Shown piece by piece: positions 45,541-64,000 of a DNA stretch of 64,000 nucleotides (positions are counted from its first letter, which is position 1; every line of letters begins with the position of its first letter). The translations under genes and the position numbers were made by a program. Under the pieces are notes generated by a model, which worked only from the letters and a program-made list of their open reading frames with translations, did no database searches and was not told the origin of the DNA. Origin of the DNA: Gordonia sp. B21 (GTDB lineage: Bacteria > Actinomycetota > Actinomycetes > Mycobacteriales > Mycobacteriaceae); NCBI RefSeq assembly GCF_039939235.1, contig NZ_JBDUUF010000012.1, positions 83,774 through 147,773 on the forward strand, written 5' to 3'.

Positions 45541-45600
45541 TGCGGGAACGCAAGTGCGCTCCCGGGTATCGGAGGGCCTTGTCCCGTTGAATCGATGTAT

Positions 45601-45612
45601 GTCAATATTGAC
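45601..45612. promoter_or_regulatory. candidate ArsR operator, perfect 12-bp palindrome GTCAATATTGAC immediately upstream of / overlapping the arsR start
   Basis: Palindrome read directly; it lies in an AT-rich stretch with a TTGAAT -35-like hexamer at 45586. Confidence 0.45.
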
Positions 45613-45614
45613 GG

Positions 45615-45977
45615 GTGTCGAATAAGAACTTGCTTCTCTTGCCAGGCCGCGGCCTGAGTGGTGACGAGACCGGAGCGGTTACCCCGCTGCTGAAGGCGCT
45701 CGCGGATCCGGTTCGGCTGCGGTTGCTGTCGGAGGTCGCCGCGCATCCGGGAGGTGAGGCGTGCGTGTGCGACATCTCCGGGCCGTTCGAGCTGTCGCAG
45801 CCGACGATCTCGCATCATCTCAAGGTGCTGCGTCAGGCGGGTCTGGTGACGAGCGAACGCCGCGCGACCTGGGTGTACTACCGTGTGAACACCGAAGCAC
45901 TGCAACAACTGTCGGTCCTGCTGGGCGATCTCGCCATGGTTGTGGGGGAAACTCGTTCGTGCGAGGCCGACCAGTGA
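45615..45977 (+). CDS. arsR: ArsR/SmtB-family arsenic-responsive repressor
   Basis: LADPVRLRLLSEVA...EACVCDISGPFELSQPTISHHLKVLRQAGLV, with the metalloid-binding CVC in helix 3; GTG start. Confidence 0.85.
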   Translation: MSNKNLLLLPGRGLSGDETGAVTPLLKALADPVRLRLLSEVAAHPGGEACVCDISGPFELSQPTISHHLKVLRQAGLVTSERRATWVYYRVNTEALQQLSVLLGDLAMVVGETRSCEADQ

Positions 45978-47077
45978 CCACCGCCGACACCGCGGTCGCG
46001 GCGAAGTTGTCGATGCTCGACCGATTCCTGCCGGTGTGGATCGGCGCAGCAATGGTCGCCGGCCTGCTGCTGGGCCGCAACGTTCCCGGCCTGGGAGACG
46101 CCCTGGCGGCCGTGGAGATCGACGGTATCTCGCTGCCGATCGCTCTCGGACTGCTGATCATGATGTATCCGGTGCTGGCGAAGGTGCGCTACGACCGACT
46201 CGACTCGGTCACCGGCGATCGTCGCCTGCTGCTGGGATCGCTGCTGCTGAACTGGATCGTCGGACCCGTGTTGATGTTCGCGCTGGCCTGGCTTTTGCTC
46301 CCCGACCTACCGGAGTACCGGACCGGGCTGATCATCGTCGGTCTGGCGCGCTGTATCGCGATGGTCATCATCTGGAACGACCTGGCGTGCGGCGACCGTG
46401 AAGCCGCTGCCGTCCTCGTCGCACTGAACTCGGTGTTCCAGGTGATCATGTTCGCCGTGCTGGGCTGGTTCTACCTCTCGGTGCTACCCGGATGGCTCGG
46501 CCTGGAACAGACGACCATCGACACCTCGCCGTGGCAGATCGCGAAGTCGGTGCTGATCTTCCTCGGAATCCCGCTGGTTGCCGGCTATCTCACCCGCCGC
46601 ATCGGTGAACGGGCCAGAGGCCGCGAATGGTACGAGTCCTCGTTCCTCCCGCGATTGGGGCCGTGGGCCCTCTACGGTCTGCTGTTCACCATCGTCATCC
46701 TGTTCGCCTTGCAGGGGGAGCAGATCACCTCTCACCCGTGGGACGTCGTGCGGATCGCGCTGCCGCTGCTGATCTACTTCGCGGTGATGTGGGGTGGCGG
46801 ATTCGTCCTCGGCGCCGTGATGGGGCTGGGTTACGCACGGACCACCACGCTGGCGTTCACCGCTGCCGGCAACAACTTCGAGCTCGCCATCGCCGTTGCG
46901 ATCGCGACCTATGGTGCGACCTCCGGTCAGGCTCTTGCCGGAGTCATCGGCCCACTCATCGAGGTGCCCGTCCTCGTCGCGCTGGTCTATGTGTCTCTGG
47001 CGTTGCGGAAACGCTTCACCAGTCCGACGACCGCCTCCAGCCCAGATGTGTCGAAGGAGCCTGTTCGCGATGTCTGA
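45974..47077 (+). CDS. acr3: arsenite efflux transporter, ACR3 family
   Basis: About 10 TM, RFLPVWIGAAMVAGLLLG...LIMMYPVLAKV... ACR3 pattern; its GTG overlaps the arsR stop (GTGA). Confidence 0.9.
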   Translation: MTTADTAVAAKLSMLDRFLPVWIGAAMVAGLLLGRNVPGLGDALAAVEIDGISLPIALGLLIMMYPVLAKVRYDRLDSVTGDRRLLLGSLLLNWIVGPVLMFALAWLLLPDLPEYRTGLIIVGLARCIAMVIIWNDLACGDREAAAVLVALNSVFQVIMFAVLGWFYLSVLPGWLGLEQTTIDTSPWQIAKSVLIFLGIPLVAGYLTRRIGERARGREWYESSFLPRLGPWALYGLLFTIVILFALQGEQITSHPWDVVRIALPLLIYFAVMWGGGFVLGAVMGLGYARTTTLAFTAAGNNFELAIAVAIATYGATSGQALAGVIGPLIEVPVLVALVYVSLALRKRFTSPTTASSPDVSKEPVRDV

Positions 47078-47753
47078 GAATGTGTTGGACGAACAGCTGA
47101 GTCGCGGCGAACACCGCGCCCAACCCGAGCTGCTGATGCCGCATACCGTGCTCGCCCGTACCGCAGCTGACTTGGCCGCCAAGTACGAAGGGGTGGTGTC
47201 TCGACAGACGGTAGAACGCTGTGTCTTCGAGTCCTACACCGCGTTACGGCGCACCTCCCGGGTGCATACGCATCTGACGACCTTGGCGGGCCGGTTCGCT
47301 GCCGATCGGTTACGCGCCCTCGCCCAGGCTGAGGGGGCGGTACCCAAGGATGTGCCCGAAGTCCTGTTCATCTGCCTCCAGAACGCCGGCCGCTCGCAGA
47401 TGGCTGCCGGATTGATGACCCACCACGCCACAGGTCGGGTACATGTGCGCTCGGCCGGATTGGTGCCGGCTCATTCGATCAACCCGACCGTCGTCGAAGC
47501 GATGTCAGAAATTGGCGTCGACCTGGGTACCGAGTACCCCAAACCACTCACCGACGATGTGGTCGCCGCCGCTGACGTGGTCGTAGCGATGGGCTGCGGC
47601 GACGCGTGCCCGATCTATCCCGGCAAGCGGTATCTCGATTGGACGGTCTCCGATCCTGAAGGCCGTCCACTTGGCGAGGTTCGCGCGATCCACGATGACC
47701 TTGACGCCCGGGTTCGCGAGCTCCTTGCCGAGCTCACGGCCAACCATCTGTGA
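47070..47753 (+). CDS. arsC: arsenate reductase, LMW-PTP family, with a ~110-aa N-terminal extension domain
   Basis: C-terminal LMW-PTP fold LFICLQNAGRSQMAAG...GCGDACP. The N-terminal 110 aa have no motif I recognise. GAAGGAG SD; the start overlaps the ACR3 stop. Confidence 0.8.
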   Translation: MSENVLDEQLSRGEHRAQPELLMPHTVLARTAADLAAKYEGVVSRQTVERCVFESYTALRRTSRVHTHLTTLAGRFAADRLRALAQAEGAVPKDVPEVLFICLQNAGRSQMAAGLMTHHATGRVHVRSAGLVPAHSINPTVVEAMSEIGVDLGTEYPKPLTDDVVAAADVVVAMGCGDACPIYPGKRYLDWTVSDPEGRPLGEVRAIHDDLDARVRELLAELTANHL

Positions 47754-47794
47754 CTTTCCGAGCATTCCTCCACAGCTGAAAGGGACTGTGTCTC

Positions 47795-48220
47795 ATGTCT
47801 TCCTCTCGACCTAGCGTGCTGTTCGTGTGCGTCCACAATGCCGGCCGCTCACAGATGGCCGCGGGGTTCCTCACCGCGCTCAGCCAGGGCAGTGTCGAGG
47901 TCCGCTCCGCCGGATCTGCGCCCGCCGACTCAATCAATCCAGCCGCGGTCGAGGCGATGGCTGAAGTCGGTATCGACATCTCGGCACAGTCACCCAAGGT
48001 CCTCACCCCCGACACCGTCGAATCCTCCGATGTGGTGATCACCATGGGCTGTGGCGATGCATGCCCAGTATTCCCCGGCGTCAGCTACCGCGACTGGGCC
48101 CTCGACGACCCCGCCGGCCAAGGCATCGACGCGGTCCGCCCGATCCGCGATCAGATCCGCGCACTGGTCGCGGACCTCCTCGACGAACTGCTCCCCGCTA
48201 ACCAGCAGGTCGGCCAGTGA
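47795..48220 (+). CDS. arsC: arsenate reductase, LMW-PTP family (mycothiol/mycoredoxin-coupled type)
   Basis: VLFVCVHNAGRSQMAAGF (CX5R P-loop), GCGDACP; 141 aa. Confidence 0.85.
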   Translation: MSSSRPSVLFVCVHNAGRSQMAAGFLTALSQGSVEVRSAGSAPADSINPAAVEAMAEVGIDISAQSPKVLTPDTVESSDVVITMGCGDACPVFPGVSYRDWALDDPAGQGIDAVRPIRDQIRALVADLLDELLPANQQVGQ

Positions 48221-62674: not shown

Positions 62675-62748
62675 TGGCGCCCGCCTCGCGAAGGGTCAAG
62701 TCCCGTGAGGTGGTGTGCGAGGTCCTCGCGTGATTCCTCGTCGTCGGG

Positions 62749-63060
62749 TTATGCAGTCAACGCCGGTGTCACCTCCTCCGTCGGTTCGGTGACGGTCTGA
62801 GCGGGTGTGTTGCTGCGGGAACGGGCAAGGACGTCGAGTCCGAGATAGCGACGCCCTTCGATCCACTCGTCGTGCTGTTCGGCGAGCACCGCTCCGACCA
62901 GTCGGATCAATGCAGTCCGGTCGGGGAAGATCCCGACCACATCGGTGCGACGCCGGATCTCCTTGTTCAGCCGCTCCTGCGGATTGTTCGACCAGATCTG
63001 CCGCCAGATCTGCTTCGGAAACGCGGTGAACGCCAGCAGGTCCGCTCGCGCTGCGTCGAG
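62749..63060 (-). mobile_element. IS256-family transposase, C-terminal fragment (5' part displaced by ISL3 insertion)
   Basis: LLAFTAFPKQIWRQIWSNNPQERLNKEIRRRTDVVGIFPDRTALIRLVGAVLAEQHDEWIEGRRYL matches the IS256 transposase C-terminus. Upstream in-frame sequence is unrelated. Confidence 0.7.
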
Positions 63061-63100
63061 ATGCTCCGCGACCTTGGGTAGTTTCGAGGCTCTTCCTGAT

Positions 63101-63729
63101 TCAGAGTGCGTGCAAGCGTTCTGCCAGGCCGCCGGAGTGGATGAGTGACCGCAAGATGTAGTGGTTGAGGTTGCGGAAGCCGAGCGCGATCCCGCGTAGG
63201 TGTTCCAAGCGTCCGTTGATCGCTTCGACCGGGCCGTTGGAGGCACCGGTGTCGAAGTAGGCCAGGATCTCGGTCCGTCGAGCCCACAGCGAGCGGCCGA
63301 GTTGGGCGAGTTCGGCGAGTTCTTTCGGCACGCCGGTGTGGATGCGTTTGAGCAGCTTGTACATCGCGATCTTCCCGTCACGCTTGTGCGGCTGGTCGTA
63401 GGCGTCAATCAGGTCCTGATAGACGGCGTAGGTGACCGCGACCGCCAGATGTTCCTCACGCGCTTGGAGGCCGTTGGTGATGCGGGTCTTCTGCTTGTCG
63501 GTCAACAAGCCGATTCGGGTGAGCAGGGGGCGGCGGATGCCGTAGAGCGGGTCCCCGCTACGGCCGCGGTGTCCGCACGTATCCTGTTGCACGCGTTGAC
63601 GACACACCGTGAGCTTGTCGGCGGCCAAGTGCACCACATGAAACGGATCCGCTGCAAATGTGGGAAGTCGAAGTCGCCGGTGACCAGGTCGGGGTTTCGG
63701 TCGAGTTCGTTGACTCGCACGAACGCCAT
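63101..63729 (-). mobile_element. ISL3-family transposase, C-terminal portion with an internal frameshift; GGCTCTTCC-type terminal IR at about 63079–63100
   Basis: LTDKQKTRITNGLQAREEHLAVAVTYAVYQDLIDAY...GASNGPVEAINGRLEHLRGIALGFRNLNHY is the ISL3 transposase C-terminus. The upstream segment continues in a different frame (…DFDFPH…). Confidence 0.7.
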
Positions 63730-63935
63730 GCGGCGTTCGAATTCTCGTAACTCTTGCGGATCGGCGTAGCCGATCCGCTGTGTCGGCGGTTACCGTGAGT
63801 GGTATGTCTGCTGTTGAGCGTGTGTTGTCTGGTCTGTGGGTGCCGTCGCTGTCTGAGGTGCGGGCTGTGGCTGAGGGCCGTTCTCGCGCTGAGGCTGCGC
63901 GGGTGGATCTGTTGTGGCGCGAGGCGATGCCCCCG

Positions 63936-63970
63936 GGGGTGGAGGCTCATATCTTCTGAGCCTCCACCCC
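63936..63970. repeat. inverted repeat / stem-loop GGGGTGGAGGCTCA-n7-TGAGCCTCCACCCC near the window end
   Basis: Read directly; it may be a terminator or an IS end structure. Confidence 0.4.
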
Positions 63971-64000
63971 CCCTGGGGCCGGTCTAGGCGAAGTCCTCCG

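Follow-up and report, generated by a model that had tools for sequence, protein, structure and literature searches.

A truncated IS110-family cargo transposon in a conserved SPFH gene of Gordonia sp. B21, probably joined to plasmid-derived DNA at the scar of a second insertion sequence

Cargo-bearing IS110-family insertion sequences (IS) were reported in a preprint by Hu, Xie, Yang and Rubin (bioRxiv 10.64898/2026.08.14.744561), who described elements with metal-detoxification cargo, growth downstream of the transposase and mobility as whole units of about 9-10 kb. In IS621 (Durrant et al. 2024, PMC11208160), a long left end (LE) precedes a DEDD transposase, the right end (RE) is very short, and the 3' sides of the RNA loops are complementary to the core plus the right target or the right donor. 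Here we report the analysis of a 64,000-nt stretch of Gordonia sp. B21 (assembly GCF_039939235.1, contig NZ_JBDUUF010000012.1, positions 83,774 to 147,773), hereafter the window, to which all coordinates refer. Its right part, from position 45534 onwards, is an island of arsenic, cadmium-class and copper resistance genes that interrupts a conserved SPFH (Band-7) gene. The island probably consists of a truncated IS110-family cargo transposon inserted in SPFH and joined, at the scar of a second IS110-family insertion sequence ("IS-X"), to plasmid DNA. The complete form of the transposon, known from relatives, is called Tn-ars/cmt below.

Like the expanded IS110 elements of Hu et al., Tn-ars/cmt combines a transposase with kilobases of downstream cargo, heavy-metal genes and plasmid-derived DNA, and it resembles them further in moving as a unit of about 10 kb, in occurring as tandem and partial copies, and in inserting repeatedly into occupied loci. 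It differs in that the text of the preprint is without Gordonia, Mycobacteriales or arsenic (10.64898/2026.08.14.744561), that Tn-ars/cmt and its 11-nt target are known here by sequence comparison, and that the copy in the window is decayed and without a transposase. With IS621 (PMC11208160) it has in common the long LE upstream of a DEDD transposase, the very short RE, a 2-nt core without other duplication, and guide-like sequences that obey the published strand rules; it departs from IS621 in its core, which is CC and not CT, and in the 9 kb of cargo that lie between transposase and RE. A third comparison is offered by the plasmids pCP86 (NZ_CP096597.1), pGKT1 and pGKT2 (KTR9), pGOR1 (NZ_CP025436.1) and that of R. 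rhodochrous BX2 (NZ_CP027559.1), which match the ars/cmt unit at 97.8%, the copper module of the island at 80-90%, and a DUF4192 gene together with a sister element (PaaI-TetR-MMPL) at 97-98%. Unlike in those plasmids, the material in the window is joined to a chromosomal core gene and is without dsbA, transposase and LE, and no replication or transfer genes lie within the window. A literature search for a named Gordonia ars transposon returned nothing specific.

The left border of the island is exact and lies at 45533/45534, the first transposon base being 45534, a few bases left of the 45541 proposed by an initial annotation made from the sequence of the window. Homology between the window and relatives ends at 45531-45533 in 13 of 13 Gordonia species compared, and in all of these the SPFH gene is uninterrupted, no island is present, and the upstream block is syntenic. 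This bears out the view that accessory, horizontally acquired DNA interrupts SPFH; the same genes in the same place were seen in none of the 13 species. The 3' part of the SPFH/Band_7 gene is retained at 44677..45533 (minus strand), its first ~120 codons are gone, and the Pfam Band_7 match is confined to profile positions 96-175. The core dinucleotide GG (CC on the transposase strand) at 45532..45533 consists of native SPFH bases and is the crossover point; the empty site in relatives reads ...gcgcagcGT GG TGAT.... A read-through open reading frame (ORF), 44677-45645 on the minus strand, continues for 35 codons into transposon-end sequence after the junction. The 322-aa "SPFH domain-containing protein" that NCBI lists for Gordonia sp. 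B21 is identical to this ORF at 321 of 322 residues, and this annotation is a fusion artefact of the SPFH/transposon junction. The proposed alignment of junctions with relatives thus yielded an exact left edge with no duplication beyond the core; the right edge lies outside the window.

The complete element was recognised in relatives, which were found by exact ArsR and LspA protein look-ups in public assemblies. The gene string of the island recurs there in many unrelated contexts, always with a DsbA-like thioredoxin and an IS110-family transposase added. Full copies of Tn-ars/cmt measure 10,605 bp and are flanked by the CC/GG core only. On the transposase strand they consist of a non-coding LE of ~233 nt upstream of the transposase, the transposase itself, ~9 kb of cargo (dsbA, lspA, an SPC-type ATPase, an ArsR-type regulator, a methyltransferase, arsR2/arsI, three arsC-like genes, ACR3 and arsR), and the RE, which is the end downstream of the cargo and carries the tip GCATTGAGAT on this strand. 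The element as a whole reads TTTACGTTGGAG...GCATTGAGAT, with CC on either side. The transposase of the full copies is a DEDD protein of 402 aa with PF01548 (DEDD_Tnp_IS110) and PF02371 (Transposase_20) domains, and is the sole recombinase gene inside the unit. As is expected of the IS110 family, the copies show no terminal inverted repeats and no duplication beyond the 2-nt core at both junctions, and they share a sequence-specific target. In at least 12 different flanks (12 counted on the RE side) homology starts and stops sharply at identical bases, and the closed chromosome of G. alkanivorans YC-RL2 (CP027114) holds three copies of 99.98% identity at three loci. Given these three copies in a single closed genome, and a total of at least 12 sites, complete copies have clearly moved as a unit.

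Two further sets of contigs concern the distribution of the element. A 120-kb contig of a human skin metagenome (L102, ERZ938695) carries a full ars/cmt transposon copy, 97% identical, so that the occurrence of the element extends beyond isolates from soil or sludge. The left flank and transposon end are common to contigs L095 (GCA_029767035.2) and L107, the element in L095 being identical only through arsI and followed by unrelated genes, which makes it a further case of a copy truncated or rearranged in a site already occupied.

The target is the 11-mer ACAATC(A/G)-CC-AC, which is present with 0-2 mismatches across 12 Tn-ars and 3 sister-element sites; written out it is ACAATCACCAC, with ACCATCACCAC as the variant in SPFH. 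The SPFH site itself, ACCATCA-CC-AC, matches the target at 10 of 11 positions, and five plasmids have one cognate site in common, beside a DUF4192 gene. In Gordonia sp. YY1 (L117), SPFH is likewise interrupted by a sister element of 5.9 kb; the RE junction of this element falls on the very nucleotide used in the window, and its LE junction keeps the native SPFH bases ACCATCA-CC where other copies have ACAATCA-CC. Because the SPFH flank of YY1 is only 87.7% identical to that of the window, the two are independent hits in different species. A reading with a GT/AC core (element GGATCTC...GATT) was also considered; it gave almost no target consensus and was ruled out by the YY1 junction and then by the AfsA orthologues, for intact AfsA orthologues contain three residues more than our first reconstruction of an ars-interrupted AfsA, as the CC-core reading predicts. 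Unbiased k-mer matching of the LE against the targets, carried out under the rejected GT/AC reading, returned no consistent pattern. The right flank of the YC-RL2 insertion in L104 shares an 11-nt exact match, TTCGAGCAGAG, with LE positions 221-231, the ribosome-binding region upstream of the transposase start; this match may be due to chance (roughly 0.03 across the targets examined) or may be the trace of a partial copy.

The copy in the window occupies 45534..53770 (plus strand) and comprises 8,237 of the 10,605 bp, beginning with the RE tip ATCTCAATGCGGGAACGCAAG and continuing with the ars and cmt-like cargo through lspA. It is without dsbA, transposase and LE, and ends at 53770, six bases past the lspA stop codon. 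Overall it is 97-99% identical to full copies, and positions 45525-53770 are 97.8% identical to G. amicalis plasmid pCP86. The identity is distributed as a mosaic: the first 500 bp and the right 4.2 kb are 99.6-100% identical, and the ars genes (46032-49531) are 88-97% identical to every other copy, which suggests recombination with a diverged ars operon. Its genes appear intact, and the ars/cmt module would no longer be able to mobilise itself, because transposase and LE have been lost.

The remnant is followed by a palindromic scar of 47 bp (53771..53817) that corresponds to the LE tip of IS-X, 14 bases (53771-53784) in forward and 33 bases (53785-53817) in reversed orientation. An intact IS-X of 1.45 kb, which belongs to another IS110 lineage, is located at the same C-run after lspA in contig L096, and in Rhodococcus plasmids the reversed part of the scar recurs at 100% identity beside IS110 transposases. 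Together with the flanking C-run, the scar forms a near-perfect palindrome of 61 nt (53764-53824; 29-nt arms, 93% complementary, 3-nt centre), for which a fold-back at the natural LE hairpin of IS-X or a recombination between two inverted IS-X ends is a possible origin. The breakpoint at 53818 lies within 2 nt of that in contig L004 and is either the end of a discrete element or a microhomology joint, TCGGGTGA being present in the lspA tail as well. When terminal inverted or direct repeats bracketing the copper module, either module or the whole island were sought, the palindrome at 53.8 kb was the only one obtained, the rest being coding-sequence noise. The initial annotation had let the dead resolvase divide the two modules; they in fact meet 660 bp before it, at 53770/53818.

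To the right of the scar the island is plasmid-like. Positions 53818-64000 are 99.9% identical to contig L004, where they adjoin a relaxase and a MobC-like gene, and positions 51520-64000, including the joint of transposon, scar and plasmid DNA, are 99.98% identical in the independent assembly L003. The copper module (55033..62674) has counterparts of 80-90% identity on many Rhodococcus and Gordonia plasmids (90% for an R. rhodochrous plasmid) and of 99.9% identity in five other assemblies, and its core boundaries lie near 55.03 and 62.69 kb. The two modules therefore match different plasmids best, pCP86 for the first and that of R. rhodochrous for the second, in agreement with the separate histories that had been proposed for them. 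As helicase fragment, resolvase fragment, copper module, IS256 and ISL3 remnants and DUF4192 block are already one piece in L004, the resolvase was dead before arrival.

The window ends inside this plasmid-type DNA. The near-identical contigs L003 and L005 carry it for at least 8.7 kb past the point corresponding to the window end, first with the DUF4192 gene and then with the sister IS110 element, which in L005 is followed by an alcohol dehydrogenase fragment; this continuation is 97-98% identical to Gordonia plasmids. The right border is reached neither within the window nor within the 8.7-kb extension, and the island is probably larger than the ~18.5 kb at which it had been estimated, with plasmid DNA that would continue past the window end. 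The sister element measures 5,912 bp (L005 4710-10621, or about 1.3-7.2 kb beyond the window end) and comprises a PaaI thioesterase, a TetR regulator, an MMPL transporter and a 407-aa transposase. It has its RE tip in common with Tn-ars/cmt, and transposase and LE of the two are 83% identical. It also occurs in YY1 and in pGOR1 (L111), and its sites are a plasmid site, an alcohol dehydrogenase gene and, in YY1, the SPFH gene; the YY1 element and the copy past the window end agree at 99.97%. In L003 and L005 the sister element occupies the DUF4192-proximal site that is held by the ars unit in pCP86.

Other members of the lineage were observed on plasmids. In pGOR1 (L111, NZ_CP025436.1), positions 3858-11210 contain two transposase copies of the same IS110 lineage in tandem; the downstream cargo RE is joined by CC to the upstream LE, three bases inside the tip (GAGAT|CC|ACGTTGAAG), and the upstream copy is without a recognisable RE. 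This tandem may be a snapshot of cargo capture. The same IS110 lineage is present in L113, L114 and L116 (plasmids of Gordonia sp. KTR9, R. qingshengii and G. rubripertincta), where the transposase is followed on its 3' side by MFS and TetR genes, by SDR and nitroreductase genes, and by oxidoreductase and TetR genes, respectively; these may be cargo variants.

The LE of the complete copies appears to encode a structured RNA of the bridge type. It is 90% conserved across eight relatives (Gordonia and Rhodococcus plasmids), and its RNAalifold consensus comprises a hairpin on the 5' side, in which two pairs covary, and two long stem-loops that contain internal loops. In the first loop, the 5' side, ACAAUCACC, is identical to the left target plus core, and the 3' side, GGUGG, is complementary to the core plus right target (CC-ACC). 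In the second, the 5' side, AUUGAGAU, is identical to the RE tip, and the 3' side, GUAAAGG, is complementary to CC-TTTAC, that is, to the core plus LE tip. The four guide-like sequences thereby occupy the loop sides expected from the IS621 model (rules in PMC11208160). The IS621 bridge RNA is arranged in this way, and a circular form may therefore be supposed to recombine conservatively, under the guidance of RNA, here as well. A member of the Tn-ars/cmt family would have struck the conserved chromosomal SPFH gene at its 11-nt target through such a site-specific recombination, and the putative circular intermediate would contain the RE-LE junction ATTGAGAT-CC-TTTACG, i.e. GCATTGAGAT-CC-TTTACGTTGG. 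In the window, the IS-X scar after lspA links the transposon remnant to the helicase fragment, the dead resolvase, the copper module and the nested IS256 and ISL3 remnants.

A number of observations weigh against parts of this account. Unlike the RNA of IS621, the putative LE RNA is predicted from sequence, and an Rfam search of transposase plus LE matched no family; the single-sequence folding energy of the LE is no better than that of shuffled sequences (z = -0.4), covariation is limited to two base pairs, the guides were assigned by eye after the junctions were known, and the left donor guide (LDG) mismatches the core dinucleotide, again in departure from IS621. Transposase and putative bridge RNA do not lie in the window, and the mechanism is drawn wholly from relatives. 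The 5' part of SPFH and the conserved block upstream of it are absent from the 27 kb right of the junction (window plus L005 extension), the 8.7-kb extension gave no tblastx match to the SPFH-upstream block of 80 relatives, and a protein search for an N-terminal SPFH fragment from strain B21 found none. The DNA past the window end was taken from L003 and L005, which are contigs of other assemblies and not of B21. The metal specificities given below are predicted from family membership and motifs.

Among the alternatives, the initial annotation had envisaged an ~18.5-kb composite with borders of IS debris, its modules joined or split at the resolvase and moved by IS256, ISL3 or resolvase-type activity. 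Much of what it rested on is real, namely that the closest relatives of the two modules differ, that IS256 and ISL3 fragments occupy 62.7-63.65 kb and that a truncated resolvase lies between the modules; as an explanation it is improbable, since the left border holds no IS remnant and is instead an intact IS110-type transposon RE at a specific target, the modules meet at an IS110-family scar 660 bp to the left of the resolvase, and L004 carries the dead resolvase together with the copper module and the IS debris as a single plasmid block. Furthermore, neither module is bracketed by terminal inverted repeats, and plasmid DNA goes on past the IS debris, which is accordingly not the right border. 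We assign a similarly low probability to an assembly chimera, in which the chromosome would hold only the transposon, and the copper block would belong to a plasmid with a truncated copy, the two having been joined through the shared 8.2-kb repeat. Such a chimera would fit the plasmid-like character of everything right of 53.8 kb, the occurrence of the same block beside a relaxase in L004, the missing SPFH 5' part in the next 27 kb, and the breaks of related drafts in this region (the L003 contig begins within the ars genes and that of L005 within the copper module). Short-read assemblers, however, usually break at an 8-kb repeat and seldom bridge it, the contig is 147.8 kb long, and the window has an ars allele of its own (88-97% identical to all other copies), which passes without interruption into the part of 100% identity; the left junction is a bona fide insertion in either case.

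A one-step origin, in which the whole ~25.7 kb from the ars RE (45534) to the sister LE, ~7.2 kb outside the window, would be a single expanded IS110 locus, is unlikely in our judgement, if less so than the two explanations above. It could have arisen from a circle that integrated into the SPFH target, or from a plasmid that recombined via an RE-core site with a sister element resident in SPFH. Between the ars RE and the DUF4192 site, the order looks like a circularly permuted form of the "DUF4192 site / ars RE" arrangement of pCP86, the sister element RE follows the DUF4192 site in L005, and the sister element alone is found at the same SPFH nucleotide in YY1. Its two flanks in L005 mismatch each other, which suggests a larger mobile unit there, and two preprints describe recombination of a donor-only "half-match" type as well as growth on the downstream side of the transposase. 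Against this, an alcohol dehydrogenase fragment and not SPFH follows the sister LE in L005, and whole-unit mobilisation was found for none above ~20 kb in preprint 10.64898/2026.08.14.744561. A broader formulation seems to us possible, though still tentative and on the doubtful side: a family of bridge-RNA-guided cargo elements (the 10.6-kb ars/cmt and the 5.9-kb PaaI-TetR-MMPL element) would home to the 11-nt motif that SPFH matches at 10/11 positions, would shuttle between plasmids and chromosomes of Mycobacteriales and, by recombination at its RE-core sites, would have brought the copper module and other plasmid DNA, ~20 kb in total, into SPFH. If this were true, the missing 5' part of SPFH should come immediately behind the sister LE, ~7.2 kb outside the window. 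The reading that we consider likely remains that of a truncated IS110-family cargo transposon in SPFH, joined at the IS-X scar to plasmid DNA.

The composition of the island differs, if modestly, from that of the core. The G+C content falls from 69.8% (positions 1-45530) to 67.3% (island), and island windows lie at a tetranucleotide distance of 18-24 from the core, as against 8-14 for core windows, an approximately twofold increase that sets in at 45-45.5 kb; the corresponding correlations are 0.94-0.96 and 0.98-0.99. The left 45 kb is core chromosome that includes the proteasomal ATPase, UppP, MeaB and both methylmalonyl-CoA mutase subunits. Positions 34.9-45.5 kb are collinear with Gordonia paraffinivorans (~91%) and 11 other Gordonia species, and the ~10 kb upstream of SPFH are conserved among relatives. 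The left part had been described as core syntenic with the Rv2112c-Rv2139 (proteasome) region of M. tuberculosis; its core nature is upheld, and its last ~8 kb consists of mutA, mutB, meaB and SPFH and does not belong to that region. This last part would correspond to the Rv1488-Rv1496 neighbourhood of M. tuberculosis. The ORF of the small methylmalonyl-CoA mutase subunit (40324-43215, minus strand) has 963 codons from its first start and its mutase domain begins at residue 371, so that either it bears a long N-terminal extension or the first-start call is too long.

ORFs were chosen by codon-position GC and then checked against Pfam, NCBIfam and motifs, with tblastn for the pseudogene; all the genes listed by the initial annotation were present near the places it gave. 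The ORFs of the resistance genes contain zero internal stops. On the plus strand, arsR (45615-45977, Pfam HTH_5), the ACR3 arsenite exporter gene (45974-47077, Pfam SBF) and three arsC-like genes of the low-molecular-weight phosphatase (LMWP) type (47070-47753, 47795-48220 and 48217-48627, Pfam LMWPc) bring an ArsR/SmtB repressor, an ACR3 exporter and the arsenate reductase function together in one co-directional cluster, as in an ars operon; the three proteins score 74-94 bits versus an NCBIfam equivalog cut-off of 158 and are sub-threshold, hence only "ArsC-like". They are followed by ArsI/CadI (48651-49136, minus strand; NCBIfam equivalog, 220.6 bits versus a cut-off of 116) and, divergent from it, by an ArsR of the Rv2640c family (49234-49596, plus strand; NCBIfam equivalog, 197.1 bits versus 155). 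An adenylate/guanylate-cyclase-like pseudogene (49709-50169, minus strand) was resolved by tblastn with a Tsukamurella plasmid cyclase into three frames with one in-frame stop, covering aa 1-151 of 234, and is adjacent to a class I S-adenosylmethionine (SAM) methyltransferase gene (50166-50762, minus strand; Pfam Methyltransf_11/25). The plus strand then carries an ArsR/SmtB regulator with a CLRDC motif and C-terminal cysteines (50854-51255), the first P1B ATPase (51252-53252; SPC at residue 292, DKTGT at 336) and lspA, encoding signal peptidase II (53249-53764). This triplet had been named CmtR-SPC ATPase-LspA; regulator, SPC ATPase and lspA are all present, and the regulator scores 60.3 bits against the NCBIfam CmtR equivalog NF047906, below its cut-off of 150, but may work like CmtR.

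Beyond the scar, a fragment at 53913..54439 is ~75% identical to helicase-related genes of four Gordonia plasmids. The serine recombinase (resolvase) gene at 54431-54894 (plus strand) is 5'-truncated, as had been noted: its Pfam Resolvase match covers profile positions 33-144, its homology to an R. rhodochrous plasmid gene begins at 54431, 85 nt inside that gene, and the 35 codons upstream of the homology are unrelated sequence in place of the N-terminal catalytic serine region. It is judged from these features to be non-functional. The copper module consists, on the minus strand, of genes for an F510_1955 lipoprotein (55033-55875), a second, CopB-type P1B ATPase (55917-58079; CPH at residue 355, DKTGT at 399), a DUF305 protein (58131-58769), a multicopper oxidase (58843-60375) and a SHOCT protein (60329-60628), and, on the plus strand, of an OmpR-type response regulator (60834-61523) and a histidine kinase (61520-62674). 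Both P1B ATPases pass TIGR01525. An IS256-family 3' remnant with the last ~80 transposase codons (~62694-63087, minus strand; Pfam Transposase_mut profile 299-378) is interrupted by the ISL3 terminal repeat GGCTCTTCC at 63088, so that the two are nested as had been described; the ISL3-family 3' remnant (63088 to ~63650, minus strand; Pfam DDE_Tnp_ISL3 profile 87-239) is itself truncated and matches plasmid ISL3 transposases. The last part of the window, 63761..64000, is plasmid backbone DNA that is 82% identical to pCP86 beside its DUF4192 gene.

The cargo presumably confers tolerance to arsenite and arsenate, organoarsenicals, metals of the Cd/Co class and copper, under its own metal-sensing regulators. 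The arsenic part would provide arsenite efflux by ACR3, arsenate reduction by the LMWP-type ArsC-like proteins and an enzyme of the C-As lyase/CadI type. The first ATPase would be a divalent-cation exporter accompanied by its repressor, and its SPC motif suggests the Co/Ni/Zn/Cd-class subgroup. The copper set would combine a CPH exporter, a periplasmic-type multicopper oxidase, DUF305 and the lipoprotein under a dedicated two-component system. Among the metal loci of M. tuberculosis, the divergent pair of ArsR and ArsI/CadI in the window resembles the arsR/cadI pair Rv2640c-Rv2641, and the ArsR-type repressor (CxxxC) upstream of a P1B ATPase resembles cmtR-Rv1993c-ctpG; the window differs from them in the sub-threshold CmtR score, in SPC in place of CPC, and in the location of the genes on a transposon.

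The island itself is ordinary, because such gene content is routine in soil Mycobacteriales, and elements of this kind are already known, because cargo-bearing IS110 elements are reported in preprint 10.64898/2026.08.14.744561. What is noteworthy is the IS110 cargo transposon together with its recurrent 11-nt target in a conserved SPFH gene, an element of a kind that has only recently been described. The recurrent target explains the interruption of the same SPFH codons in different Gordonia species. With Tn-ars/cmt, the recent claim that "minimal" insertion sequences guided by RNA expand into carriers of cargo can be examined on a concrete example from the actinobacteria, and the element offers a natural pair of a recombinase and a putative RNA that already bears 9 kb of cargo in high-GC hosts.

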